A stretch of DNA of 64,000 bases from Nitrospirota bacterium (GTDB lineage: Bacteria > Nitrospirota > UBA9217), in the NCBI GenBank assembly GCA_963796285.1, contig CAWCKW010000012.1, positions 1,216,001 to 1,280,000 of the forward strand, read 5' to 3'. The stretch's first letter is position 1. Each line of letters starts with the position of its first letter. Positions 5,906 to 32,817 of the stretch are shown in pieces. The notes below the pieces were generated by a model, which ran no database searches, was not told the origin of the DNA, and worked only from the letters and a program-made list of their open reading frames with translations. A program made the translations under genes and the position numbers.

Positions 5906-8458
5906 TTAAGCCTGATAAATTCCGTCCAAAAAATTCCTTGCATAGCGCTTTACCGCATGGTCATCCTGGAGCACGGCATCCAGCTGACGGGTATAGGAGA
6001 TCAGCCTGCCAAGCTGATCGAGGATGGTTACCGCCTCCTCCCTGTCGATGTTCGCGAGCCGGGCAACGATCAGATCGCCTTTTGTCTTGATGTTGAAACC
6101 GTACTCGCCGAGGATCTCAGCGATGAGCTGCAGCCTCCTCGAACGCTTGGTCATGTCGGTGGCGCCGCCGGTGAACCGGAAATAAATGTGGTTGTTTCTT
6201 GTGTTCTCGCTGCAAAAGCAGTCCAGGACGATGAAATGATAGCCGAACTTCAGGCTGATGTTCGCATATTCCCGGGAAATGACGGCCATGTTCGATTCCA
6301 CGCGGCCGCCGCTGTCGGACATGATATCGGGCATACGCAGCATACTCGACATAAAATCATTGACGTTCAACGGGACTGCGTCGGAGCGCCAGATGCCGGG
6401 GCGGGTCATTCCCGTGATCAGCGCCCGAAGCGGCAGCGAAGCGATTTGCTCGGCGGTGACATGGCCGCTGGGCGAGGAATTGTCCAAGCCTCCGCCGATA
6501 TCGATGACCATGATGCCGGCGGGGATCGACAGATCCAGGTTGACGGCACCGGCCTTCACGCCGGACTGCGCGGTCTCGATAAGCTCGGCGACCGATTTCT
6601 CATGGATGAAGCGCAGAATATCATGCATGGTCTTGCATGCCTGCGGCGTAAACTCATCCCGCAGAGGATCGACCAGGTTCAGCGGCGCGATGTAGCGCAG
6701 GAGATACCTTTTTTTGCGGAACTCCAGGAGTTCTTCCATCCTTGCGGAATCGTTTCGCGCGTGCTCCACGATCTGCCTGACCAGTCCCCTCGGTAGATGG
6801 TCGCCCCTTCGTTCTCCACCTGGATGGTGATCTCCTGGCCGTGGGCAAGCAAATGCGTTGCATTGCCCGCGTTCACGACCGTTGGGATCCTGAACTCCCT
6901 GCACAAGCGCGGCCATATGGCTCGTCGGCGTTCCCGTGTCGGTGACGATCGCGGACACGTCGGTCATCACGCGGACGAAGTGGGAGGAATCGTGCCGCGC
7001 AACGAGGATAGCGCCCTTGGGGATGGAATCAAGTTCATTGATGTTCTTCAGGATGAAGACCCGGCCCGCTGCCACGCCGTTCTGCACGGCAAGCCCGCTG
7101 TTCTTCGCGAGGACCTTCGCGTCAGGCGCGCCCGGGCCCGCGGCACGAGTGCGGGTGTCATCGCCTGACAGTCTGAGCGGCCGCGACTGGAGGATGAACG
7201 CCCTCCCCTGGCTGTCGAAGGCCCACTCGATGTCCTGGGGCCTGCGAAAGTGCTTTTCGATCAGCAGCGCCAGCCGGACGAGCTCAGCGACCTGCCCTGG
7301 ATCAAGGCTCGATCGTGTTCGTTTTTCCTCCGGCGTCGCGACCGCCGTCACACCGCCTTGTTTCATCCCGATGACCATCGAGCCCTTCGTGCCGATCCTC
7401 GTCTCGACGATCTCCCGGTTGCCGGTCTTATTCACCCTGTAAAAATCAGCATCGGTCTGGCCTTCCACAACGGAAGTGCCAAGCCCCCACGTAGCATTGA
7501 TGATAAGCGTGTCACGGTTTCCCTGTTGATCGATCGAATACAGGACGCCGCTCGTATCGGCATCCACCATCACCACGCAGCCCACGGCCATTTTCATGTC
7601 ACTGAGGTCGTACCCCAGTCTTTTCTGATACATCGACGACTTTTCAGAGAATAGACTGGCGAGCACCTTCCGGTACGCCTTTTCAACTGCAGCGGTTTCG
7701 AGTGGCACATTCAGAACGGTTTCGAACTGTCCTGCGAACGAGAAGTCTCCATCCTCCTCCCCTGCACTGCTCCGCACAGCGAAGGAACACTTCCCTTTGC
7801 ACCGCGAACTGATCTTGTTGACGGCCTTGTCGATGGCGCGGTGAAGGTCGGGCGGCATCTCTCCATGCAGAATAAGCTCATGCACTTCATGCAGGGACGC
7901 CGACGGGACCGTGGCATTGTTCTGCGGTAGCCGTATCTTTTCAAAGATCCGGTTATGGCCCATGAAGGCGTCGAAGGCCCGGGTCGTTACCGCAAAGGCA
8001 TCGGGCACGTTCAGCTTCAGCGCGTTTTTGATCTCCGCGAGGTTGGAGTTCTTACCGCCGATGTCCCGCACCATATCGCCGGTAACGTGCTCATAGAAAA
8101 CGACGAGATCCTTTGCCGGGATAACGGTTTCATCGATGACATGCCTGATCCCTTCGTCGATTTCCCGGGACTTCTCTCGGAGCTGTGGATACCGGCCGTG
8201 CGTTAGCAGGTCAAAATCGCGGAGGGAGTCGTCTACGGCGGCGTGAAGGTCGGCATAGGATCGTTTGACGTACTGAATGTCGAACAGATAGTCCCCGCCA
8301 AGGGTATCACCCATGTCCGTAATGATCTCGAGCGCCCTGTTGTTATCGTCGAGGACCTCGCGGAACCGGGAAAAAAGCAGCTCGAACGAATCCCGGTTGC
8401 GGCGAACGCGCCAGAGGGTCCGGTACAGAGAGTTCAGTTTTCCGGCAAAGTTTGTCAT
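5906..8458 (-). CDS. PEP synthase/pyruvate,water dikinase-like protein (ATP-grasp plus phospho-His domain, non-canonical C-terminus; compensating frameshifts ~6790-6905)
   Basis: IGGKNSNL, AVRSSAGEEDGDFSFAGQFETVLN, WGLGTSVVEG, PQDIEWA and LQSRPL; His motif TGTPTSHMAAL followed by CREFRIPTVV in an alternative frame. Confidence 0.85.
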   Translation of the reverse strand: MTNFAGKLNSLYRTLWRVRRNRDSFELLFSRFREVLDDNNRALEIITDMGDTLGGDYLFDIQYVKRSYADLHAAVDDSLRDFDLLTHGRYPQLREKSREIDEGIRHVIDETVIPAKDLVVFYEHVTGDMVRDIGGKNSNLAEIKNALKLNVPDAFAVTTRAFDAFMGHNRIFEKIRLPQNNATVPSASLHEVHELILHGEMPPDLHRAIDKAVNKISSRCKGKCSFAVRSSAGEEDGDFSFAGQFETVLNVPLETAAVEKAYRKVLASLFSEKSSMYQKRLGYDLSDMKMAVGCVVMVDADTSGVLYSIDQQGNRDTLIINATWGLGTSVVEGQTDADFYRVNKTGNREIVETRIGTKGSMVIGMKQGGVTAVATPEEKRTRSSLDPGQVAELVRLALLIEKHFRRPQDIEWAFDSQGRAFILQSRPLRLSGDDTRTRAAGPGAPDAKVLAKNSGLAVQNGVAAGRVFILKNINELDSIPKGAILVARHDSSHFVRVMTDVSAIVTDTGTPTSHMAALVQGVQDPNGRERGQCNAFACPRPGDHHPGGERRGDHLPRGLVRQIVEHARNDSARMEELLEFRKKRYLLRYIAPLNLVDPLRDEFTPQACKTMHDILRFIHEKSVAELIETAQSGVKAGAVNLDLSIPAGIMVIDIGGGLDNSSPSGHVTAEQIASLPLRALITGMTRPGIWRSDAVPLNVNDFMSSMLRMPDIMSDSGGRVESNMAVISREYANISLKFGYHFIVLDCFCSENTRNNHIYFRFTGGATDMTKRSRRLQLIAEILGEYGFNIKTKGDLIVARLANIDREEAVTILDQLGRLISYTRQLDAVLQDDHAVKRYARNFLDGIYQA

Positions 8459-8463
8459 GACCT

Positions 8464-8835
8464 TTAGGGCTGCTTTTCCAGCGCCCGTTTGATGGAAGCC
8501 TTCAATTCCTTTATCTTTACGGGTTTCGGGAAAAAGTCATGCACGTCCCTTCGGAGCGCCTCAATGGCCGCATCGAGGTTGGCGAAGGCCGTGATCATGA
8601 TGACCTGTGTCGCGGGATACAGGTCTTTCACGGTCTTCAGCACCTCCATCCCGTCGATCCCTTTCATTTTGTAGTCCGTTACGACAACGTCAAATTTTTC
8701 TTCCTTCAACCGCTTCAGCGCCGGCTCGGCGTTCAGAAAGGTTTCAACAATATAGCCTTCCTGCTCGAGGGACAGTTTTGACATGTCGCCCACGATCTTT
8801 TCATCGTCAATGACCATGATCTTGTGACTATTCAT
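8464..8835 (-). CDS. Single-domain response regulator
   Basis: REC motifs VIDDE, VTDYKM, MITAF and PKP. Confidence 0.92.
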   Translation of the reverse strand: MNSHKIMVIDDEKIVGDMSKLSLEQEGYIVETFLNAEPALKRLKEEKFDVVVTDYKMKGIDGMEVLKTVKDLYPATQVIMITAFANLDAAIEALRRDVHDFFPKPVKIKELKASIKRALEKQP

Positions 8836-10240
8836 TGTTCTTCTCCTCTTTATTGTACTGGGGCAGCTCTATGGTAAAGGTCGTTCCTACACCGGCCATG
8901 CTGTCCACCCTGATCTCTCCATGATGATTCTTGATGATCCCGTAACTGACCGAGAGCCCGAGTCCGGTCCCCCCCTCCCCCTTGGTGCTGAAAAAGGGAT
9001 CGAAAATATGGGGAAGAAACTCGGGCGCAATGCCCTTGCCCGTATCCGCAACGCCGATCTCGACGGAATTTCCCTTCTTTCCCGGCCGTGATGAAAGAAC
9101 GAGCCTGCCGCCGGAGGTCATGGCCTGGACCGCATTCGTGATCAGGTTCACCAGCACCTGCTGGATCTGGTGCTCATCCACGAATACATGCGGCAGGCTG
9201 TCGGCGAGGTGGATCGATGTCTCGATATTCGACACATCGATCATGTTCTGCACCAGGGTGAGCGTCTTCTGCACCACCACGTTGATGTCCGCCTCGTTCG
9301 GGTTCGCGTCCTTGGGTTTTGAAAAATCGAGCAGGTTCTTGACGATCTTCCGTATCCGCTCCGTCTCAGCATCGACCTTATTCATGAACTCGATCCGGTC
9401 ATGTTCGCCGAGTTGTGGGTAGAGTTCCGCGTAGGTCTGTGCGATCATCGATATATTGTTGAGCGGATTGGTGAGTTCATGTGCCACGCCGGCCGTCAGG
9501 ATGCCGAGGGAGGCAAGTTTCTTTGACTGGATCAGTTCTTCCTCGCGGTGGCCGAGCTCCTCTGACATGGAATTGATCGCCGTGATAACCGCACCGAGCT
9601 CATCATTGGACCGAAATCCCGCTATCTTGTTGAAGTTCCCTTCGGATATCGATTTTGCCAGCTTCTCGATCTCTCGCAGAGACCTGAGGATCTTTTGAGA
9701 AATAAAATGCCCGATAACGAGCGCGGAAAGCAGAATTACCCAGAAGGAGAAGATCAGGATGCGCTTCGAATTCAGGATAATATCGTTCACGCGGGTGCGT
9801 TCGAGGTGTGTGATGGAATCAGAATACTCCTTCAATTTCTTTCCTGCCGCGCGAATCCTCGTTTCCAGGTCAGGGTCCTGAGGATCCTTCGTGCTCGCCA
9901 CCTGGATGACGGCCGAGTAGATCTTGAGATGGGATACCAGTTTCCTGAGATCTTCCTCCCCGATCGCCCGGATAATGTCATCGCTCTCGGCCTCGATCGT
10001 TGTCATCGTCAATGCTATCTTTTCCCGGATATCCTTGAGTGCCATCCTGTCGTGGTACAGGAAAAAGTTCTTTTCCGAAAGCCGCATCTCGAGAAAGGAC
10101 GCGTTCAGGTCGTCGGCGATCTCGACGAACTTGAGTTTGGTAAGCACGAGGCTCATGTTCTGAAAGGCGAAAAAGCCGATCAGGATGATGAAGGCGCCGT
10201 TGATGGTGTTCGAGAGAATGAGTTTACGTTCAATTTTCAT
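8828..10240 (-). CDS. Sensor histidine kinase (2 TM, HAMP, HisKA, HATPase)
   Basis: H-box AGVAHELTNPL; NLITNA, DTGKGI, FDPFFSTK and GTGLGL. Confidence 0.93.
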   Translation of the reverse strand: MKIERKLILSNTINGAFIILIGFFAFQNMSLVLTKLKFVEIADDLNASFLEMRLSEKNFFLYHDRMALKDIREKIALTMTTIEAESDDIIRAIGEEDLRKLVSHLKIYSAVIQVASTKDPQDPDLETRIRAAGKKLKEYSDSITHLERTRVNDIILNSKRILIFSFWVILLSALVIGHFISQKILRSLREIEKLAKSISEGNFNKIAGFRSNDELGAVITAINSMSEELGHREEELIQSKKLASLGILTAGVAHELTNPLNNISMIAQTYAELYPQLGEHDRIEFMNKVDAETERIRKIVKNLLDFSKPKDANPNEADINVVVQKTLTLVQNMIDVSNIETSIHLADSLPHVFVDEHQIQQVLVNLITNAVQAMTSGGRLVLSSRPGKKGNSVEIGVADTGKGIAPEFLPHIFDPFFSTKGEGGTGLGLSVSYGIIKNHHGEIRVDSMAGVGTTFTIELPQYNKEEKNNE

Positions 10241-20262: not shown

Positions 20263-20338
20263 CAACAGCCATGAGCCGATCTCGGCTGCTCAGAACTGTA
20301 AATAGTTTACGTCATAGACCTTTTTTACAACTTGCCTT

Positions 20339-20422
20339 CCACGGATTTTCACGGAACAATCAAAAGACTCTTCTTTACTCTCTTAACAAATTCCCCATTA
20401 TCGCTTCCGTGATATTCCGTGG
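20339..20422. repeat. cacgga-type inverted repeat
   Basis: ccacggattttcacggaa pairs with ttccgtgatattccgtgg, between convergent genes. Confidence 0.6.
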
Positions 20423-20474
20423 CCTATTCTGTGGTAAAGGCGCAAATTTTTTCTCTATTCAAAATTGTGTTACC

Positions 20475-21726
20475 TTACTCGGGATAGGCAATCCCTCTCG
20501 GGATTTCAGCCTGTTCCTTCCGCACGGGCCAATACCACAGCGTTCCGTCGATCACCAGGAGAAATCCGGCCGCAATAAGCCAAAGATTGAACGACGTCAG
20601 GAGGCCGAAACCGAAATAGCTTATAATGCCGATTCCTATGCTCAGGAACGAAATACCAGTGCGGATAAAGGCCAGCCCGGTCCGGGCACGGGCGTAAATG
20701 GTGCGGTAACACGCGGCGATCGTCCGCTGGGCCGCCAGGACGTTTCGTTCGCGGGCGAACACGGTCCGCACTTTGCTCGAGGGCGACGGGTACAGATAGG
20801 TACTGTAGTCCGAAAGAAAATCTCCCATTCGGGCAAGCATCGTCCCTTGGGTTTCCCTCTTGATTCCCGTGTTTTCCAGAAAATGATAATTCTCAAGGAA
20901 TTGGATAGTTGTTGCGGTAACCTCCACCAGCGTCTGGTGGCCCGGAGGCGCCATTCGGGATTTTCGAACATTCAAATATTGTGGGAAGTCCATAAAAGAA
21001 AATGACAATCCCGACTGCCAGCACCGAGAAATACAAAAAGGGGGAACTGCTCGCGTTTTTCGTCTGGAGCAGGGTATTGGAGAGCGCAATCGTGCCCAAG
21101 CCCCATCTCAGGAAAGCAAGACCGGTACGGGCACCCGCGAGGTCGGTCCGGTAGCAGGCGAGCCTCGTCCTCCAGTGGGCCATGGTATTGCGCCAGTACG
21201 CAAGTCCCGTCCGTTCCGTGCCTATCAATAAACCCGGCTTGGCATGAAGATAGTCCTGAATAAACCACTGTATATCGAAATCAAGGGTGACCCGGTACTC
21301 ATATCGTTCGGCCTTGACGTATTTTTTTATATCTTCCTTCATGGTGGGACTATCGGGGTGTCTCGCCGCGATGACCACCGTGCCGGTGTCTTCTTTGATG
21401 ACAGGCATCCACTGGTTCGTTGAAAGCGCATCAGCGCTGAGACCGGTCAGAAGCTCGGGCGGTATGGGTAGACGTTCATCATATTCAATGAATGGGCATT
21501 GATAATAGGCGGCAAGCGCCTCAAGCAACCGGTATTTGGGCACACCATATTCCGCAAGCAGAATTTTTTCGAGGTCGATCCCCCGCGCCCGAGCGACGAA
21601 CGTCGCCCCGTCAAGCGTTTGTTGGTCTAAAATCCCGCGCTCAACGAGAAAGGAGAACTCCGGGCCTTTTCGCACGCCGGCATTGGTCAGATCATTATTA
21701 TTCATGTTTAAAAGTTCACGACTCAT
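20475..21726 (-). CDS. GspE/PilB N-terminal-like domain plus 2x DUF202 membrane repeats (frameshift near 20975)
   Basis: LAAYYQCPFIEYD...WMPVIKED..VVIAARHP; repeats RTRLACYRTDLAGARTGLAFLRWG and RTIAACYRTIYARARTGLAFIRTG. Joins ORFs 20893..21768 and 20475..21089. Confidence 0.75.
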
Positions 21727-23362
21727 CTTGACTAAAAACGACCGTTCCCCATTTGTTCGTCGGTACACCGTAATCGGGAAGGGTTATCTCCATATCACCG
21801 TAGCAATAGGGAAATTGCGCTCTCATTTTTTCAGTCGGAACGATCCAATAGTACCCATCGGCGATCAACGCAAGACCGACGAAGATCATCACCGCATTAA
21901 AGAGCGTCCAGCCGACCGATGCCGTGCCGAAGTACACCATGAGGCCCGCACCGACAGAGGTAATGCTCATGCCCGTCCGGACAAATGCCAGACCTGTTCG
22001 TGTCACAGCCATAACCGAGCGCAGCCTGGCCATCACGCATCGCCGGTCCGCGAGAACGGTCCGTTCAAGAGCAAGCCCGGTGGTGGCCCATATGCCCGGC
22101 AAGTGAGATGCGCGGACCGGAGGACCGGCCTTGTCCTGTTGGGGACCGGTACGATTGTGCCGGAGCGGAAAAACCTTGTCCCATATGCTTTCCTTATTGA
22201 CAGCGTCAATCACAGACTTAAGGCTTTCTATGCCGGACCGTCTGCCGCCGAAATACCAGTAGAATCCTTCCGCAGACATCAATAGCCCAGCGACGATGAG
22301 CGATATATCGAGAATCGTCCACTTGCCGGCGTGAAACTGCCGGAGCAATCCGACGCCTAGGCCGATGAAAGCAATTCCCGTCCGCGTAAAGGCAAGCCCC
22401 GTCCGGGCACGCGCCAGCTTCGTCCTGTGGCCCGCCAGAGAGGTCCGTTCCTCTGCCATGTCCGTCCTGTCGGAGGCGAGAAACCTTCGTCTCATGACCG
22501 GAGAAAGATACTCCCACCCTGCCCGAAGCGCTTCTGCGCCCTTGACTACACCGCTGCGGTTGAAAACGGGATGCCCTTCTGCGGACATCGACTCCTCCAG
22601 CACGCATGCGCCCCAGGAAGGCTCAGTGCAAATGGAATCGATCGGTTTTTTTGCTATCCTTCGCGCCGGGAAATACCATTTGAGTCCGTCATAGGACATG
22701 ATAATGCCGACGATAAGGAGCGGCGCCTCGAAGACGGTAAAAAGTCCTATACCGAACACTCTCAGGAACAAAAGGGCAATAACGATGAAGGACACGCCGG
22801 TCCTGATAAAGGCAAGACCGGTCCTTCCCTTGGCGAATAACGTCCTATAATGAGCATAGGTTGATCGCCGGTATGCGAAATAGGTCCTCACACGCGCAAG
22901 GGGCGTTCTTCCTCCTGAGAAGGAAAACGAGGGGTTTACATCGAAATTGTGCTCGATGATGCGGATGAGATCAGCGGGAAGGGCAACGATAAAATCAATA
23001 TGGCCAACTCCGAGGGTCTTTTTTATATCGTCGATTACCCGTGGATCGTCGGGGCGGCACGCAATCACTTCGGCCCGGTCCTCTCTGATCGATCGCGGAA
23101 ACCAGAGATGCTTTTTCAGCTTCTCCATGTCCAAACGGATGATCAGGAGATAGGCAGTTATAACGCTTTCATCATATTCTACGAAGGGCAGCCCGTAGTA
23201 TTCGGACAGGCAGAAAAGGAGCTCGTGCTTGGGAACCCCGTTCTCTATCAGCTTCTCTTCAAGCAGGGAACCCGATGTTGCGGATTCACGAATGAGCCGA
23301 TCCAGCTCATCGCCGGAGAGAATGCCTCTTTTTATCAGCCTTTCAAATTTTTTGCGTTCCAT
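21716..23362 (-). CDS. GspE/PilB N-terminal-like domain plus 3x DUF202 membrane repeats
   Basis: LSEYYGLPFVEYD...WFPRSIREDRAEVIACRPDD; three RTGLAF(I/T/V)RTG repeats, each followed by two TM helices. Confidence 0.8.
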   Translation of the reverse strand: MERKKFERLIKRGILSGDELDRLIRESATSGSLLEEKLIENGVPKHELLFCLSEYYGLPFVEYDESVITAYLLIIRLDMEKLKKHLWFPRSIREDRAEVIACRPDDPRVIDDIKKTLGVGHIDFIVALPADLIRIIEHNFDVNPSFSFSGGRTPLARVRTYFAYRRSTYAHYRTLFAKGRTGLAFIRTGVSFIVIALLFLRVFGIGLFTVFEAPLLIVGIIMSYDGLKWYFPARRIAKKPIDSICTEPSWGACVLEESMSAEGHPVFNRSGVVKGAEALRAGWEYLSPVMRRRFLASDRTDMAEERTSLAGHRTKLARARTGLAFTRTGIAFIGLGVGLLRQFHAGKWTILDISLIVAGLLMSAEGFYWYFGGRRSGIESLKSVIDAVNKESIWDKVFPLRHNRTGPQQDKAGPPVRASHLPGIWATTGLALERTVLADRRCVMARLRSVMAVTRTGLAFVRTGMSITSVGAGLMVYFGTASVGWTLFNAVMIFVGLALIADGYYWIVPTEKMRAQFPYCYGDMEITLPDYGVPTNKWGTVVFSQDES

Positions 23363-23603
23363 AGGGTTATCATACCATGCGGAGGGAAACAGCCTGACGG
23401 GAACAGCATTTACATGACCGGGTTCAAGAGCAAAAAGTGATGGAGGCGTTTTACGCCTCCATCACAAGCACAACACGGGGATATATGACAAAACGTCTCA
23501 TTCATCTTCCGGCAATTTATGCTTCGAGTTTTTCCTCGTGATGGACCTTCATCCTTTTGATCCACTGTTCCCTTCCCTGCGTTTCTCCAAATATCCGTGC
23601 GGA

Positions 23604-23786
23604 TCAAACTTTTGCTTTTTCTTTTCGGTCCTGCTCAATATTGCCGGGTTTGTCTTGCAAGCCCTCTTTAAATCCCCGGATCGCTTTTCCAAGACCTTCC
23701 CCGAGCGCGGGAAGCCTGTTGGGCCCGAAGATCACAAGGGCAATGATCAGAATGACCACCATTTCGGGAAATCCAAGTCCACCCAT
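23604..23786 (-). CDS. tatA: Twin-arginine translocase TatA/E subunit
   Basis: MGGLGFPEMVVILIIALVIFGPNRLPALGEGLGKAIRGFK. Confidence 0.9.
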   Translation of the reverse strand: MGGLGFPEMVVILIIALVIFGPNRLPALGEGLGKAIRGFKEGLQDKPGNIEQDRKEKAKV

Positions 23787-23860
23787 CTTTTTCTCCTTTT
23801 CATACGGAAATAAACGACGTGGTGGATTTTACACTAATCCGCTCCGCGCTTCAAGCGTTT

Positions 23861-24283
23861 TTATACATTCACTACGTACACGGGACAGGGCGCCAGGTTA
23901 ATGACCTTTTCGACAATATGGTCCCCGAACAGCCTGCTCAAGATGCCCTTTTTCTTTTTCGACCCCATGATGATGAGGTCGCACCGTTCCTCTTCCGCTA
24001 CCTCAACGATCCTCTGCGAGACATCACCCTGTTCCAGTCTCGTCTTGATCAGCGCGCCTTCGGCCTTCGCCATTTCGCCAATCTCTGAAACAGCCTTTGC
24101 CCCGCCGTCATCCAGGACATCATTGAGGTTCTTGATCCCGGTCAGGTCGAGATCGCCGTCGAACGGACGGAGGACCTTCACGACCGTGATCCAGGTCTTT
24201 TCATCCTTGGCCAGTTTGATCCCCTGTTCGAGAACTTCTTTGTGCCCATTCAAGGCAATAAGGATTTTTCTATACCCTTTCAT
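23861..24283 (-). CDS. Universal stress protein (single domain)
   Basis: YRKILIAL...DLIIMGS...APCPVYVV. True start taken as MKGYRK; the ORF-track extension is repeat-derived. Confidence 0.88.
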   Translation of the reverse strand: MKGYRKILIALNGHKEVLEQGIKLAKDEKTWITVVKVLRPFDGDLDLTGIKNLNDVLDDGGAKAVSEIGEMAKAEGALIKTRLEQGDVSQRIVEVAEEERCDLIIMGSKKKKGILSRLFGDHIVEKVINLAPCPVYVVNV

Positions 24284-24303
24284 GTCGCTACGCTCCATTG
24301 ATA

Positions 24304-24399
24304 ATTGAAAATTGGAAATTATAAATTTGAGATTGAAAATTGAGAGATGCATTTGAGATAATTTTACATTTTCCAATTTCCATTCTTCAATTTCCAATT
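24304..24399. repeat. Degenerate heptamer-period inverted repeat
   Basis: attgaaaattggaaatt...attgaaaattg versus ttttccaatttccattcttcaatttccaatt. Confidence 0.6.
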
Positions 24400-24422
24400 C
24401 GACAGCTCCTCTGTCGCACGCA

Positions 24423-25289
24423 CTACCTTACTATCAGTATCGGACGGGCGGCGCTGGCTATGATCCGCTCTGCCGTGCTGCCCATGATCGCCTTGTTCAT
24501 GCCGCGCCAGCCGTGGGTCCCCATGATGATCAGATCGTTCTTGAACTTGTCGGCGATCTCCACGATCTTCTCGCTCGCGTGGCCTTCCTGGACCACTGCC
24601 TTGATCTGCACTCCCTGTTCAGCGGCCAACTTCTTCGCGGCATCGGCGATCTTTTCGGCCTCCTGGAACAGGCTCTTGGTGATGGACTCGGTCTTGTAAA
24701 AGTCCACCATCTCCTCGTAGCGCGGGATCACGTAGAGGACGGTTATCTCGCCTCCATCGAGCTTTGACAGTTCGCAGGCGCGCATCAGCGCTTTTTTACT
24801 GGAGTCTGACCCGTCAAACGGGACCAGAAGGGAGCTGTATGTTCCCGTGCATCTGGTGCACTCCTTGTTCACCACCAGCACATCGCAGGGCGAGTTCAGG
24901 ATGACCTGCGAAGTCACACTGCCCATGAGCAGCCGCTTGAGCCCTTTTCTGCCGTAGGTGCCCAGGGCGATCAGGTCTGCCTTGTTGGTTTCAGCCGTTT
25001 CAACGATGACCTCGGGCGGCTCGCCCTCGCAGATCATCGACTCAACACTGCCGTTCAGTCCGAACTCATCATGAGATCTTCTTTTTTGCATCAAGGCAGA
25101 CGGCATGTGCCGAACTCGAACCGCTTTTCCATCTGCGATGGCAGGATGGCGAACTCTTCCTGGTCGAAATATACCGCATGGATCAGGAAGAGTCTTCCCC
25201 CCGTGCACTTTCACCCATCGGGAAGCCTCTTTCAGCGCGGCCTTGCTCGATAGCGACTCGTCATAGCCTACAACAATGGAGTTATACAT
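24423..25289 (-). CDS. Tandem universal stress protein (compensating frameshifts)
   Basis: DLIALGTYGRKGLKRLLMGSVT and DLIIMGTHGWRG...GSTAERII. Confidence 0.9.
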   Translation of the reverse strand: MYNSIVVGYDESLSSKAALKEASRWVKVHGGKTLPDPCGIFRPGRVRHPAIADGKAVRVRHMPSALMQKRRSHDEFGLNGSVESMICEGEPPEVIVETAETNKADLIALGTYGRKGLKRLLMGSVTSQVILNSPCDVLVVNKECTRCTGTYSSLLVPFDGSDSSKKALMRACELSKLDGGEITVLYVIPRYEEMVDFYKTESITKSLFQEAEKIADAAKKLAAEQGVQIKAVVQEGHASEKIVEIADKFKNDLIIMGTHGWRGMNKAIMGSTAERIIASAARPILIVR

Positions 25290-26096
25290 CAGTGAGAGCC
25301 TCCGCCTTTTTTGAACACCATGCTTACGCCGAAACCCGCGCCAAGCGCGACCCCGATGGAGAGAAAACCGTAGATCGCCGGGCTGTTCTTTGCCATGGTT
25401 GCCAGGGTCTTGACCATGCCGACCTGCTCAACGTTGACCTTTGACTGGGCCTGTTCCACGACCTTATTGTCCTTCACGGCATAGACCGAGACAAGGTAAT
25501 CTCCCGGCTGGGCCTGGTAGGGCCAATCGGTGAGGATGATAGTATTCCTGTTGTCCTTCGGCGTTCATGGTCGTCTCGATCTTCCCGGATGACGTCGTGT
25601 ATACTTTGGACGATTCCTTGTACTTGACGAACTCATCGAACCATTTCGCCTTCTCTTCCTCGTTCGCGACCGGGGTTATCTCCACATGTTTCGCAAGCGC
25701 GGGATAGCCGATCACATACTTCTCCATCTCTTCACGGCTCAGGATGTCTTCCACCTTCTTCGTGCTGAAGACCTCGTAGAAGTTGGGGGTCTGCTCGAAC
25801 TTCAGCTGGCCCACATTCATCCAGAGCACTCCCCCGACCTTGCCCTTCTGCTTCAATACCTGGTGCCCTTCGGGCGACGTTATCTTGATGATCAGGTCCG
25901 CGCCGGGATCCGATATGCCCCGCACGCTCACGGTGCTGCCGTGATAAAAAAAGTCGATGGTGATATGGTCGTGATTCGCCTTGGCAGTGAGCATCGCAAA
26001 AGCGTTATTGGAAATTGCAAATTGGAAAATGCAAATTGCAAAGGTGAAAGCGAGAAAAATATTGAACTTTGAACTTTGAACTTTGAACTTTTTCAT
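25289..26096 (-). CDS. TIGR02186-like exported/membrane partner of TSUP exporters (frameshift near 25540)
   Basis: Signal peptide, then ITIDFFYHGSTVSVRG, KGKVGGVLWMN and PNFYEV; C-terminal TM PAIYGFLSIGVALGAG. Confidence 0.75.
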
Positions 26097-26098
26097 TA

Positions 26099-27026
26099 TT
26101 AATGTCCTCCGACCTGGCTGAGAAGTAATGACGGGGTCAACGTGACCTCGAAAACGATCTTGACGGTCACGACGAGCACGATCACCGCGAGAAGGATCTT
26201 GAGCTGCTCGGCCTTGAGCTTCCTGCCGAACACGGCGCCGATCTGCGCCCCAACGGTCGAACCCAGGAGCAGGAGCACGGCGAGCAGGAAGTCCACGCTG
26301 TGATTGGTGTATGCCTGGAGGAACGTGACCTCGATGCAGGTGAACAGGATCTGGAACAGGCTCGTTCCGACCACCACGTGCATCGGCATCCTGAGCATGT
26401 ACACCATGATCGGCACCATCAGGAACCCGCCGCCCACGCCCATGATGGCGGCAAGAATGCCGACAAACCCGCCAAGTACGATCGGGACGAACACGGAATG
26501 GGTGATGCCCGACTTCTCGAAGCGGGTCTGGAGCGGCAGGGACTTCAGGAACCTGCCCATTGCCGACTCCTTTTCTTCCTTCGCTTCTTCTCCCGGCCGC
26601 ATTCTTTTTCTTCCTCATGCTCTGGAGGCTCTCGATGAACATGTAGACGCCGACGATGCCGAGCATGAGGATATAGGTAATCTTGATCACGAAATCGGCA
26701 TTGCCCATGGCATGGAGCAGCTTGATTGCCTGGACGCCGACGATGCCGCCGATAAATCCGCCGACAAGGAGATACAGTCCCATCTTGAAGTCCACGTTGC
26801 CGACCTTCCAGTGGGCATAGGTGCCGGACGTGGATGCCGCCACGATCTGGTTGGAATCAGTTGCCGCGGCAACCGTCGACGGGATGCCGAACATGATGAG
26901 AAGCGGCGTCAAAAGAAATCCGCCGCCTACGCCGAAGAGACCGGAAAGCAGTCCCACGGCCAGCCCGAGCCCCACGGGGATCAGGATGTTGATGCTGGTC
27001 AATGCTACAGGTAGATACAGGTACAT
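26099..27026 (-). CDS. Sulfite exporter TauE/SafE family protein (frameshift near 26595)
   Basis: MYLYLPVA...SGLFGVGGGFLLTPLL and AAIMGVGGGFLMVP...VVGTSLFQ. Confidence 0.9.
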
Positions 27027-27124
27027 TACTGGCACTCCTTTTCATTTATTATTTTTTACGCAACGTTCACGGAGGTTTAAAGCTTGACTCATTAACCTTT
27101 AACTTTTATTGTTTGAATGTTTTT

Positions 27125-27622
27125 TTAAGCAACTGCACAGGCCTGCCTGGTCATTGTCACGATCGGACGCGATGCAGTGCGTACAAGCCGGTTCAGGTCC
27201 TTGGAAGTAACATTACCCGCTTCGGTGATCGCGGGACTCAACACGACTTTATCGATGCCGGTATGCTCCTTGAGGAATTTTCGAATGCCTGATATCGCAT
27301 CCAAGCCCATGGAATGGACCTGCACCTGAATGCCTTCCTGGAAACATTTTTTCACAACAGTGTTGAGCTCCTTTTCGAAGACCTCCTGCCTGCCCTGAGA
27401 GCCCTCGGTCATGATCTGTTGCGCCGTGTCGTGCTCGCCTGCTTCGGCAAAACTGACTGCCGTCATGAGGTTTTCGAACTTGGCCATCAGGCGGCTCTGC
27501 TTATGGACGAACAGGAGCGTGATGTCCTCATACATAGCCTTTGCAAGCTCGATGGCGTACGAAACCCCTTCTTCCAGATTTTCATCCCTATAGGTGACGA
27601 ACAACAATTGTCTCTTTCCCAT
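27125..27622 (-). CDS. Hypothetical USP-like protein with an internal FAEAGE motif
   Basis: GVSYAIELAKAM...ITLLFV, AVSFAEAGEHDTAQQIM and a C-terminal RPIVTM; GGAGG RBS. Confidence 0.75.
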   Translation of the reverse strand: MGKRQLLFVTYRDENLEEGVSYAIELAKAMYEDITLLFVHKQSRLMAKFENLMTAVSFAEAGEHDTAQQIMTEGSQGRQEVFEKELNTVVKKCFQEGIQVQVHSMGLDAISGIRKFLKEHTGIDKVVLSPAITEAGNVTSKDLNRLVRTASRPIVTMTRQACAVA

Positions 27623-27665
27623 TCTAAAACCCTCCTTCGTATGTGCACTGTGTTGCTTACTATAA

Positions 27666-27681
27666 TGCAACCACAGTGCCA
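27666..27681 (-). promoter_or_regulatory. sigma54 promoter
   Basis: Minus strand TGGCACTGTGGTTGCA is a perfect -24/-12 match, about 45 bp upstream of the ATG at 27622. Confidence 0.88.
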
Positions 27682-29670: not shown

Positions 29671-31002
29671 CTATTCTGATTTCAAAATCCTCCACAAGCT
29701 TGTCCGCGAGATTCCCAGGACCTCCGCGGCTTTTGACTTGTTGTCACCATACATTTCGAGTATCTTCTCTGCATAATCTTTATTGAGTTCCTCGATAGTC
29801 CTGACCTTGTCCGGCTCGATCGTTTCTATCTGGAACATCTTGATGTTCTGGGGCAGGCTGGCCGGCGTTATCACGTCACCCTTCTCGAGGATGATCGCCC
29901 TTTCCACGATGTTCTCCAGTTCCCGCACATTGCCCGGGTAACTGTAATGCATGAGTACTTCGAGCGCATCTTTCGTGAAACCCGTGATCTTCTTGCGGGA
30001 ACTGAGGACATGCTTTTCCAGGAAATAGGAGCAGAGCGGCAGGATGTCGTCCCGGCGGTCACGGAGCGGAGAGATGGAGATCTCCATGATGTTCAGCCGG
30101 TAGTACAGGTCCTCCCGGAAGCGTCCCTCGGCAATGATGGACCGTACGTTCTGATTGGTGGCCGCGATGAAACGAACGTCGACCTTGACCGGCTTGATTC
30201 CGCCCACGCGGTAGAACTCCCCTTCTTCAATCACCTTGAGCAGCTTGGCCTGGAGACCAGAGGCCATTTCGGCTATCTCGTCCAGAAACAGCGTGCCCGT
30301 GTCGGCAATCTCGACGAGCCCCTGCTTGGTCTTGACCGCACCGGTAAAGGCACCCTTTTCGTGGCCGAAGAGCTCGCTCGCAAGCAGTTCCTCGGTCAGC
30401 GTAGCGCAATTGATGGAAAGAAACGGCATGCCCTGCCGCCGGCTCGTGAAATGGATGATCTTTGCCAGGAGGCTCTTACCCACACCCGTTTCACCGGTCA
30501 AGAGCACGTTGCAGTCCGAGTCTTTCATCCCCTCGATCGTGCCGAGGATGTTGCTCATGCTTGCGCTCCTGGCGATGATCGAGACCTTTTTGTCCATGCC
30601 CGCATAGGCCTTCAGTGCGATATTCTCCTTCTTCAGGATCTTCTGATCGCGGATTTTATTAACCTTCAGGACCAGTTCGTCCAGGTCGAAAGGCTTGGTA
30701 ACATACTCGATGGCGCCCTTTTTCATAGCCTCGATCGCAGAACCGATGCTGCCGAAGCCCGTGATGATGATCACCTCGACCTCGATCTGTTTCACTTTGA
30801 TCTTTTCGAGCAGTTCAATGCCCGTGAGCCCCGGCATCTTAATGTCCGCGATCAAGAGGTCAAAGGAATCCGACTCGATCTTCGCGAGGGCATCGAGCCC
30901 GTTCAGTGTACTCGTGACCAAGTAACCTTCAGCCTTGAGCGTGTTCACGAGGTGCTTTACGGTAATCTCTTCGTCTTCCGCGATAAGTATTTTGAATGCC
31001 AT
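29671..31002 (-). CDS. sigma54-dependent response regulator
   Basis: REC domain, GETGVGKS, SELFGHEKGAFTGA and HTH. Confidence 0.95.
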   Translation of the reverse strand: MAFKILIAEDEEITVKHLVNTLKAEGYLVTSTLNGLDALAKIESDSFDLLIADIKMPGLTGIELLEKIKVKQIEVEVIIITGFGSIGSAIEAMKKGAIEYVTKPFDLDELVLKVNKIRDQKILKKENIALKAYAGMDKKVSIIARSASMSNILGTIEGMKDSDCNVLLTGETGVGKSLLAKIIHFTSRRQGMPFLSINCATLTEELLASELFGHEKGAFTGAVKTKQGLVEIADTGTLFLDEIAEMASGLQAKLLKVIEEGEFYRVGGIKPVKVDVRFIAATNQNVRSIIAEGRFREDLYYRLNIMEISISPLRDRRDDILPLCSYFLEKHVLSSRKKITGFTKDALEVLMHYSYPGNVRELENIVERAIILEKGDVITPASLPQNIKMFQIETIEPDKVRTIEELNKDYAEKILEMYGDNKSKAAEVLGISRTSLWRILKSE

Positions 31003-31245
31003 GGCGCTCCTTTTGCCTCTCTTGTCGTAATGAAGTAATGCAATATTTTACCACAGAGCACTCAGAGAATACATTTAACTTCTAAATCGAATTTAACCAG
31101 GCGCAGAGAACGCAGAGGAGAATATTGATAAATCATTAGCGAATTTCTCGGCGTCTCTGTTTATGGCCGCGCCTTCGTAGCCTGCTGTTGCCATATCGCG
31201 GCCACAGGCAAGAGCAGGCTATGTCTGCGCGGCAGCTTATGACTT

Positions 31246-32817
31246 TTACAAAGCCCTGGGCATGGTGATCGTAAAGACCGTACCCTTCCCTTCATCGCTG
31301 GTCACGCTGATATCTCCATAGTGCTTCCTGACGATGTTGAATACGATGGCCAGCCCCAGTCCTGTGCCCTTGTCCTTTGTGGTGAAAAAGGGCTCGAAGA
31401 CCTTTTCCTGAGACGCCTTCGGCATGCCCTTGCCACTGTCGGAAACAGTAATGGTAATGGCCTCGCCAACGGTCCTGATCCTCACCGCCAGCGTTCCTCC
31501 ATCCGGCATAGCCTCCACTGCATTGGTGAAAAGATTGATGAAGACCTGTTCCATCAACTCCGGGTCCGCCATCAGGATGGAGTCGAGTGGTCCGGCATCC
31601 AGCGCAAAGTGTGCCTGGGACGTATCCGCGGTCAGTTTTTTGTAGACATGGTCGATCAATTCGGCCAGATTAATCCTCTGCAGGCGGGGCTCACGTCCCC
31701 GGGCGAACTCCAGGAGATCTCCCACGATCCGTTTCACCCTGACTGTCTGGCCCAGGATGTCCGATACCGCTTCATGCAGGACCGGAGAACCGCTTTCACC
31801 GGCCTGCTTCGCAAGCACTTGGGCCGAGAGATGAATGTTGTTCAGGGGGTTGTTCAACTCGTGGGCAACCCCGGCGGCGAGCGTTCCGATGGCGGCCAGC
31901 TTTTTGGTTTGGATCAGCTCCTTGTTCTTGCGTTCCAGCTCCGCTTCCCGCAAGGAAAGTTCGTCCTCCATCGTATTGAACTTTTCGATCAGCACTCCCA
32001 CCTCGTCAGCGGCATTGCCGCGTGAAGGGGACACAGATAGATGCGGGTAGGAGCCCTTGCCCGTTCTCTCTACGACATTGATCAGCAGCATGAGTCTCTT
32101 CACAACGTTCGTACTGATGAAGAACAGCATGCCGATGCCGACAATGAAAAAGATCGGGAAAAAGATAAGAATGGCGACCTGCGATACCCGTATCACCGTC
32201 TCGGCCTTTTCCCGGGCGATCTTGTCGAGGTCCTTGGAGATGACCAGGATCTCTTCCCCGGTTTTCCTGAGTGTCAGGATGTCCGCATCGAGCGCCCGGA
32301 GGCCGGTGAGCAGAACATGACCGCGCGGCAGAAGGAACACCTTTTCAAGAAATTCAGCAGACTGGACAGGCCGTTCGAGGAACGTGGCCTCCACAAGTGA
32401 AAAATATTTTTTTTCGTTCTTCCCGTATGACGTTTTAGCCCTCTCAAAGACATCGGTCAAACGCTTAGCCTCGACCTCGATAGCTGCAAAACTCCGTTCA
32501 TATTCATGGATCCGGTCCCGCAGAGAAAGCTGGTCCGACCGATCGATCCCGGGGTTCTTCGCCAGGGTGTCGTTGAGCTCGGCAAGATAGGCATGGACCG
32601 CCGCCAGCTCTTCATCCATCTTCTGCGGACTGTAGAGGAAGAAATTCTTCTCGTGACGCCGGAGCTGGAGCGACTTGCGGCTGATCGTATCCGTGATCTC
32701 GAGATAGCGGATCTCTTTTTTGATCTCGACAAAGCTGAAATATTCGAACGCGGCAAGGACGGCGATGATGAAGGCGCTGATAAAAAAGCTGAGGACTATT
32801 TTTTTCTTAAGCGACAT
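31246..32817 (-). CDS. Sensor histidine kinase
   Basis: Two TMs, LRRHEKNFFLY sensor motif, [11 protein letters not shown] and HATPase boxes. Confidence 0.93.
   Translation of the reverse strand: MSLKKKIVLSFFISAFIIAVLAAFEYFSFVEIKKEIRYLEITDTISRKSLQLRRHEKNFFLYSPQKMDEELAAVHAYLAELNDTLAKNPGIDRSDQLSLRDRIHEYERSFAAIEVEAKRLTDVFERAKTSYGKNEKKYFSLVEATFLERPVQSAEFLEKVFLLPRGHVLLTGLRALDADILTLRKTGEEILVISKDLDKIAREKAETVIRVSQVAILIFFPIFFIVGIGMLFFISTNVVKRLMLLINVVERTGKGSYPHLSVSPSRGNAADEVGVLIEKFNTMEDELSLREAELERKNKELIQTKKLAAIGTLAAGVAHELNNPLNNIHLSAQVLAKQAGESGSPVLHEAVSDILGQTVRVKRIVGDLLEFARGREPRLQRINLAELIDHVYKKLTADTSQAHFALDAGPLDSILMADPELMEQVFINLFTNAVEAMPDGGTLAVRIRTVGEAITITVSDSGKGMPKASQEKVFEPFFTTKDKGTGLGLAIVFNIVRKHYGDISVTSDEGKGTVFTITMPRAL

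Follow-up and report, generated by a model that had tools for sequence, protein, structure and literature searches.

The stretch of DNA analysed here, referred to as the window, comprises 64,000 nucleotides of contig CAWCKW010000012.1 from a Nitrospirota bacterium (assembly GCA_963796285.1, positions 1,216,001 to 1,280,000 of the forward strand). On its minus strand two overlapping genes, designated A and B, were found to encode proteins with an N-terminal MshEN-like domain followed by DUF202 membrane hairpins, three in A and two in B. This count of three plus two is fixed among the relatives of the pair, the arginines that stripe the hairpins are invariant, and the hairpins are homologous to the transmembrane helices TM1 and TM2 of Vtc1. 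That A and B share an interface and close into a ring is predicted by structure models. The reading favoured here, at about even confidence, is that A and B assemble 1:1 into a pseudo-pentameric ring of DUF202 hairpins, built from two chains, whose long axis is lined with arginine and whose cargo would be anionic. The pair probably serves as a conduit, since it supplies five arginine-striped hairpins of the kind present in the yeast polyphosphate channel. Literature searches on DUF202, YidH, MshEN and polyphosphate channels found no paper on the A-B pair, which is real, conserved and uncharacterised.

The A and B Proteins

The two genes and their parts are arranged as follows, cyclic di-GMP being abbreviated as c-di-GMP.

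21716 to 23362, minus strand: gene A, an intact open reading frame (ORF) of 548 residues with an MshEN-like domain, three DUF202 hairpins and, at the C-terminal end, a conserved tail
22940 to 23362, minus strand: MshEN/GSPII-type fold of A, residues 1 to 141, assigned by structure matches and without the c-di-GMP motif
22652 to 22909, minus strand: A hairpin 1, residues 152 to 237, with Arg 152, 159, 166, 173, 180 and 187, followed by two membrane helices
22235 to 22489, minus strand: A hairpin 2, residues 292 to 376, with Arg 292, 299, 306, 313, 320 and 327
21815 to 22084, minus strand: A hairpin 3, residues 427 to 516, with Thr 427, then Arg 434, 441, 448, 455 and 462
20475 to 21726, minus strand: gene B, 416 residues when intact, with an MshEN-like domain and two DUF202 hairpins, present as two frames in the assembly
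21244 to 21654, minus strand: MshEN-like domain of B, residues 25 to 161, assigned by Pfam and the secondary structure of a model
20961 to 21213, minus strand: B hairpin 1, residues 172 to 255, with Arg 172, 179, 186, 193, 200 and 207
20505 to 20768, minus strand: B hairpin 2, residues 320 to 407, with Arg 320, 327, 334, 341, 348 and 355, and a Pfam DUF202 score of 21.3 bits
20983, no strand assigned: an extra base in B that breaks the frame, probably an assembly error

In Pfam, A matches MshEN (PF05157) with 41.5 bits (cut-off 23.1) and DUF202 (PF02656) with 61.3 bits (cut-off 23.4) in three stretches, the best of which covers residues 313 to 371. Among 8000 scored candidates, 950 homologues of A were identified at E <= 0.001, with an almost constant length, and both families are present in 118 of the 120 A homologues among the matches listed. 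For B, 1329 homologues, likewise of almost constant length, were identified in the same way. The 291-residue ORF of B matches MshEN over residues 90 to 176 with 39.5 bits (cut-off 23.1); the two B fragments reach 14 and 21.3 bits for DUF202, both under the cut-off of 23.4, and PF02656 is annotated in precomputed form on most intact B homologues. No NCBIfam family is matched by A or B. AlphaFold2 (AF2) models of A and of P0122, an intact B, have mean pLDDT values of 76.8 and 71.0, respectively.

The preliminary description of this DNA, made from the sequence alone, had proposed three and two repeats of a helix with arginine at every seventh residue. Such runs were located in both proteins, at residues 152 to 187, 292 to 327 and 434 to 462 of A and at 172 to 207 and 320 to 355 of B. 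In the models, the first helix of every hairpin is 49 to 57 residues long and starts with six heptads of the type RTxLAxx; a second helix follows, so that hydropathy and the AF2 models of A and B agree on two membrane helices per unit (153 to 203 and 209 to 237 in A hairpin 1). In an alignment of 46 A and 49 B homologues, heptad position 'a' is an invariant arginine at 29 of 30 positions. Position 'e' is alanine or another small residue (serine or glycine in the last heptad), 'b' is mostly threonine and 'd' is hydrophobic; columns a, b and e have the lowest entropy. In the following heptad, which lies inside the membrane, 'a' and 'e' are glycine, serine, alanine or valine. A junction of the form RTGLAF-x-RTG is invariant in all five hairpins, with a motif of the ERT...RT type before the first membrane helix, and hairpins A1 and A2 carry a further arginine (R201 and R341, respectively) at the far end of their TM1. 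Taken together, the five first helices carry 40 lysines and arginines against 8 aspartates and glutamates.

Integrity of Gene B

B starts with the ATG at 21726 and overlaps the end of A by 11 nucleotides. The two overlapping genes described earlier were found, A being intact; B, however, is not a single open frame in the assembly. It is present as two overlapping ORFs in different frames (20893 to 21768 and 20475 to 21089), and tblastn of the B region runs in frame -2 and then in frame -3. In an alignment of the B DNA with an 87%-identical orthologue, the sole gap in 1252 columns was due to a surplus A in the window.

For positions 20400 to 27100, the window was compared with Logan contigs of four metagenome runs. 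Base 20983 is omitted by every covering contig of runs X1, X3 and X5, run X2 being without cover at this position. The same contigs omit other single bases at 24367, 25074, 25104, 25192, 25539/25540 and 26590/26592, and these coincide with tblastn frame changes in the TauE and Alph_Pro_TM genes and with a garbled stretch of the tandem-USP gene (USP, universal stress protein). The COX1, NadA and RmuC genes of the window are matched by their Pfam profiles in part only. P0122, an uninterrupted B of 416 residues, shares its contig with an A that is 99% identical to that of the window, and in the 12 loci inspected B is a single open frame of 400 to 455 residues. Because short-read contigs and an intact, near-identical copy lack the extra base, and other indels occur in the window, the break is read as an assembly error. 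These sequence comparisons indicate that B is probably intact in nature and that base 20983 is an error of an indel-prone assembly; alternatively, the frame break may be a very recent mutation.

Pairing and Repeat Number

In a search of 41 related genomes, with E <= 1e-82 taken as a strong B-type match, such a match was identified in 13, and in all 13 an A-type match lies directly upstream on the same strand. The co-occurrence of the two genes, on which the earlier proposal depended, was thereby borne out.

When species-representative genomes were scanned, 193 stretches matched; 78 loci were kept, and their hairpins were counted with a hairpin hidden Markov model. The count was 3+2 in 72 loci, 3+3+2 in two and incomplete in four (3+1, 3, 2 and 2); three of the incomplete loci are cut by the end of the contig or locus, and L074 is possibly cut by the scoring cut-off. 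The repeat total is therefore fixed at 3+2 in every complete locus, save the two with 3+3+2 (L086 and L089), in which two A-type genes of three hairpins each stand in tandem ahead of B. The records are titled as Nitrospirota-type metagenome-assembled genomes, with the exception of one Betaproteobacteria bin and a few Desulfocapsaceae bins. Since these genomes are kin, the locus counts are not independent trials.

Clustering of the membrane part at 50% identity (E <= 0.001) gave only 187 representatives. These consist of three-hairpin proteins of 491 to 569 residues, two-hairpin proteins of 397 to 411 residues, fragments and single-hairpin proteins, and a chain with four or five hairpins is not among the 187.

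Model of the A-B Complex

Residues 145 to 548 of A and 160 to 416 of B (P0122) were folded together, each with its own unpaired alignment. The A-B ipSAE was 0.76, 0.72 and 0.73 in three runs, while the best of three controls gave 0.00. The mark applied to this score is attained by 116 of 157 solved complexes, as opposed to 2 of 215 mismatched pairs, a calibration that holds only roughly for chains with their own unpaired alignments. Contacts agree across the runs to at least 83%, and the partner pLDDT is at least 61.

In the model, the helix of A hairpin 1 (152 to 202) contacts B hairpin 2 (319 to 369) over its whole length, and the helix of A hairpin 3 (430 to 476) likewise contacts B hairpin 1 (169 to 219). 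The interface is formed by faces g, a, d and e of one partner and a, b, e and f of the other, with 'a' and 'e' common to both. The A1-B2 and A3-B1 contacts are therefore compatible with closure of a five-unit ring, and the predicted pattern matches the one expected for a closed ring A1-A2-A3-B1-B2 with arginine and alanine towards the axis. As a model only, the pseudo-pentamer that had been proposed from a heterodimer supplying five repeats is thus supported by an ipSAE of 0.73 together with the fixed count.

On this basis, the following mechanism is proposed. A and B would be translationally coupled and would assemble 1:1 into a ten-helix membrane ring with the order A1-A2-A3-B1-B2, a counterpart of the VTC transmembrane ring. 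Past the membrane, the five inner helices would continue for about four heptads as a cytoplasmic five-helix barrel. The 'a' arginines and 'e' alanines would point towards the axis and form six arginine layers, followed by a ring of small residues in mid-membrane. Such a cationic tube could bind and conduct an anionic cargo, probably not polyphosphate made by polyphosphate kinase (PPK). The two MshEN-like domains, devoid of the c-di-GMP motif, may act at the cytoplasmic mouth as docking or gating modules, and the ring may work with a co-encoded HAMP kinase, a receiver and a dikinase similar to phosphoenolpyruvate (PEP) synthase, a link for which the gene counts in relatives and the hairpin fusion proteins P0280 and P0349, both described below, speak.

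Relation to VTC and Other DUF202 Proteins

When a single-hairpin profile was searched against all sequences of the PDB, the only top matches were four distinct sequences of Vtc1, with E values of 0.017 to 0.027. The alignment spans TM1 and TM2, and the ERT arginine of Vtc1 corresponds to the next-to-last arginine of the family. A profile of the whole of A matched only the N-terminal domains of PilF and PilB in the same sequence set. The kinship with DUF202 and VTC claimed in the preliminary description holds, given a Pfam DUF202 match of A over the cut-off and the homology of the hairpin to the pore-lining TM1 of Vtc1.

VTC is described as a pentamer of 3:1:1 composition, each subunit having three membrane helices, of which the five TM1 form the channel; Vtc1 K24 and R31 and their equivalents in Vtc3 and Vtc4 line its wall (PMC9911596). 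The VTC ring (three Vtc1, Vtc3 and Vtc4; PDB 7ytj, 8i6v and 9umg) shares with A-B the DUF202 unit, the number of five units and basic residues seven apart on the inner helix. It consists of five separate subunits, whereas A-B would be built from two chains with 3+2 tandem units. The basic ladder also differs: each A/B helix carries six arginines, reaching about four heptads into the cytoplasm, while VTC has two basic residues per helix. An SPX or catalytic tunnel domain as in VTC is absent from A and B, in which Pfam identifies only MshEN and DUF202; a gene architecture SPX-VTC-DUF202 is named in PMC12388464.

Bacterial DUF202/YidH proteins (PF02656) have in common with A and B the Pfam match and a motif of the ERTxLAWxRT type where the first membrane helix begins. 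Unlike in YidH, the units of A and B are in tandem, with an N-terminal MshEN-like domain and extra arginine heptads. YidH is without established function; in PMC10299036 it is only a screening candidate for D-alanine export, and export was not measured there.

Single-hairpin, long-stalk DUF202 proteins (for example P0283, P0288 and P0313) show the same heptad, two-helix hairpin and RTGLAF junction as A and B, but have one hairpin per chain, about 15 to 25 RTxLAxx heptads and no MshEN domain. A Cytidylate_kin2 (PF13189) gene lies beside long-stalk proteins in 9 of 28 scanned loci (metagenome loci among L108 to L187), and transporters next to them were CLC (two loci), TauE (one) and PF03601 (two). 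In genome G000, outside the window, one more single-unit DUF202 gene was identified at C12:466926-467168 on the minus strand (77.6 bits, in an open frame of 145 residues).

Weighing of the Proposed Ring

Several points weigh against the proposed ring. The link to Vtc1, as judged by sequence, is marginal (E about 0.02), and the units of A and B have two membrane helices where VTC subunits have three; two-helix units would, on the other hand, allow all the arginine helices of tandem copies to stay on the cytoplasmic side. For the membrane part, Foldseek against the PDB gave no VTC match and listed ABC exporters at a TM-score <= 0.15. A wide search with VIA-align also listed no VTC chain, and the membrane part resembled designed helical-repeat toroids at Z <= 13, matches which at such Z are common for helical repeats according to the tool's own note. 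As weak evidence, a fused five-repeat form was not found among longer proteins of 960 to 2740 residues. The ring was judged from contact lists of the model, and the ipSAE obtained may stem from a resemblance to the VTC ring already solved and not from binding between these copies. At the A3-B1 interface, Arg 455 of A lies beside Arg 193 of B and not beside the sequence-equivalent Arg 200, one heptad off; this predicted shift would be a real stagger or else an error of the model caused by the repetitive sequence. In addition, thirty arginines buried together with so few acidic residues would be mutually repulsive unless anions were bound, which fits a static, anion-filled core equally well.

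It was considered whether A and B form no 1:1 ring at all, oligomerising alone or in another ratio, with 3+2=5 as a coincidence of gene history. This is judged improbable. The tolerance of a second A-type gene in the two 3+3+2 loci, the long-stalk relatives with a single hairpin, which must self-assemble, and the inconsistent register at one model interface are in its favour, but it is at odds with the strict pairing of overlapping genes, with counts fixed in every complete locus and with a model interface score far over the controls.

More weight is given to a ring that forms without conducting, although this too is considered unlikely. Its arginine core would hold fixed phosphate, sulfate or chloride in a structural or sensing role, and would report the status of the anion or of the membrane to the kinase, receiver and dikinase. 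These three are the most constant neighbours of the pair (55, 43 and 38 of the 78 loci, respectively), and two fusions were identified in relatives, P0280, consisting of a hairpin and a receiver, and P0349, consisting of a hairpin, a receiver and a dikinase; glycine, serine and alanine at 'a' and 'e' in mid-membrane also fit tight packing of helices. In contrast, the homologous VTC ring is reported as a proven translocation channel (PMC9911596), and R201 and R341 at the far end of TM1 suggest a path across the membrane.

Should the conducting A-B ring be correct, it would represent a new way of building a VTC-type ring, five units from two chains, and a tube with some thirty invariant arginines along its wall would be rare as a protein architecture. 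A two-chain ring would fix the order of the units, and mutagenesis of single pore positions would therefore be possible. Since DUF202/YidH has no known bacterial function, the pair offers a concrete and testable architecture. For the sulfur-cycling Nitrospirota, the cargo would bring new biology, and association with an unusual dikinase, a receiver and a sensor kinase suggests transport under regulation, not a housekeeping channel.

The N-Terminal Domains

The N-terminal domain of A was superposed by VIA-align on the N-terminal domain of MshE (5htl_B) with Z 14.5 and a root-mean-square deviation of 3.1 A over 137 residues, and on that of XpsE with Z 14.2; with Foldseek, the GSPII-B domain of PilF was matched at E about 1e-4. 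The domains of MshE, PilF, XpsE and PilB thus share the fold of A (Z 11.3 to 14.5 over about 137 residues) and belong to PF05157. Unlike these proteins, A and B have neither a secretion ATPase (T2SSE) nor the c-di-GMP motif, and the domain is joined to a membrane domain. That the N-terminal domain occurs without its ATPase, as first noticed in the preliminary description, agrees with the Pfam scans, in which no ATPase family was identified in A or in either B fragment.

The motif by which MshEN domains bind c-di-GMP consists of two 24-residue stretches of the form RLGxx(L/V/I)(L/V/I)xxG... (PMC5013675). The strict motif, a relaxed motif and a regular expression for the RLG core were each matched by 0 of 46 A and 0 of 49 B homologues, and a manual comparison showed that the RLG positions of A read K-K-F and L-L-E. 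Canonical c-di-GMP binding is therefore unlikely, and the doubt raised earlier about the degenerate motif proved justified, even the relaxed form being absent from both families. That the N-terminal domains are working c-di-GMP receptors which open the channel is accordingly rated as very improbable, in spite of a complete MshEN fold with a Z of 14.5 to the c-di-GMP-bound MshE domain. The main text of PMC5013675 mentions no DUF or transmembrane fusions; its supplementary architecture tables might list some.

The Cargo

PPK1 (PF02503) was identified in 1 and PPK2 (PF03976) in 3 of the 41 related genomes, and neither was found in any of the 25 same-family genomes searched, with or without the A-B pair. 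The VTC catalytic domain (PF09359) was found in 0 of 5 searched genomes that carry the pair. The completeness of genome G000 is 96%. Since neither PPK turned up in the same-family genomes searched, polyphosphate made by PPK is an unlikely cargo, and the idea of polyphosphate as the cargo is not supported. An anti-correlation between PPK and the pair was also looked for and not found, as both enzymes are missing in the whole family sample regardless of the pair.

A polyphosphate channel like VTC would be in line with the homology to the VTC pore helix, with the five units and with a basic ladder longer than that of VTC; a further point is the C-terminal domain of the co-encoded dikinase, about 290 residues to which no family is assigned. 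Set against the distribution of PPK1, PPK2 and PF09359 given above, this reading is regarded as quite improbable.

The dikinase gene (5906 to 8458 in the window; L025:10525-13191 in a relative) encodes a protein similar to PEP synthase over the ATP-grasp and His-swivel domains only, and its C-terminal part of about 290 residues has no match in Pfam, NCBIfam or the PDB sequences. In a very speculative extension, hardly to be expected, the A-B ring would be the conduit of a PPK-independent polymer system, in which the dikinase, under the control of the kinase and receiver, makes or loads a phosphate-rich anionic polymer that is threaded through the 29-arginine tube. The polymer would possibly be polyphosphate made by a new route, and the system would be a bacterial analogue of the coupled synthesis and translocation by VTC.

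Genomic Neighbourhood

The features surrounding A and B in the window are the following.

5906 to 8458, minus strand: PEP-synthase-like dikinase (Pfam)
8467 to 8835, minus strand: receiver (Pfam)
8828 to 10240, minus strand: HAMP histidine kinase (Pfam)
23437 to 23465, minus strand: strong terminator-like hairpin of 13 pairs with a T run, between the tatA-like ORF and A
23604 to 23786, minus strand: tatA-like ORF of 60 residues between the USP gene and A, directly upstream of A
23861 to 27681, minus strand: upstream operon with an unknown 165-residue gene, TauE, Alph_Pro_TM, a tandem USP and a single USP, assigned by Pfam and the order in tblastn
27666 to 27681, minus strand: perfect sigma-54 consensus TGGCAC-N5-TTGCA, about 45 nucleotides ahead of the gene with which the TauE/USP operon begins

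In relatives, the gene order is the unknown 165-residue gene, TauE, Alph_Pro_TM, tandem USP, USP, A and B, followed either by the HAMP kinase, the receiver and a PEP-synthase-like dikinase of 850 to 890 residues, or by an MFS transporter. In the tblastn survey of the 78 loci, many of which are truncated and from which the counts for the kinase, receiver and dikinase were also obtained, MFS was identified in 18, and upstream of the pair Alph_Pro_TM in 48, each USP in 47 and TauE in 45. In the window the kinase-receiver-dikinase module (5906 to 10240), which directly follows B in relatives, is displaced and separated from B by a plus-strand block with MFS, TauE, CLC, CBS, kinase and sigma-54 regulator genes. 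For this reason, the neighbourhood rich in anion exporters to which the preliminary description had pointed stands only in part: TauE is found upstream in 45 of the 78 loci, whereas the CLC and MFS genes next to B in the window belong to the block that interrupts the usual operon. Its statement that pilus and type II secretion genes are missing nearby is in agreement with the Pfam scans, in which none of these families was identified among 17 + 32 window ORFs of at least 110 residues.

The tatA-like ORF lies upstream of A in 23 of the 78 loci (tblastn), and its equivalent in L027 matches Pfam TatA_B_E. A scan for sigma-54 sites gave 28 matches, compared to 29 expected by chance; the only perfect one is that at 27666 to 27681, and none lies just upstream of A. 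In a sigma-70 scan of 20300 to 24000, the interval from the terminator-like hairpin to A showed no convincing promoter. Of the sequence words sampled, a fraction of only 0.06 to 0.08 occurred in three RNA runs. Just beyond the perfect sigma-54 site, a sigma-54 activator and a kinase are encoded at 29671 to 32817.

Two intergenic gaps of this region, 24297 to 24399 and 25993 to 26052, contain AT-rich repeats with a period of 14 (ATTGGAAATTGCAA-like). Contigs of runs X1 and X2 skip 141 nucleotides at 24284 to 24424, and the bin 26000 to 26223 has a very high summed depth of about 2050 (X1), 490 (X2) and 1840 (X3), with many loose ends. The repeats, the skip and the depth together suggest a small, widespread repeat element.

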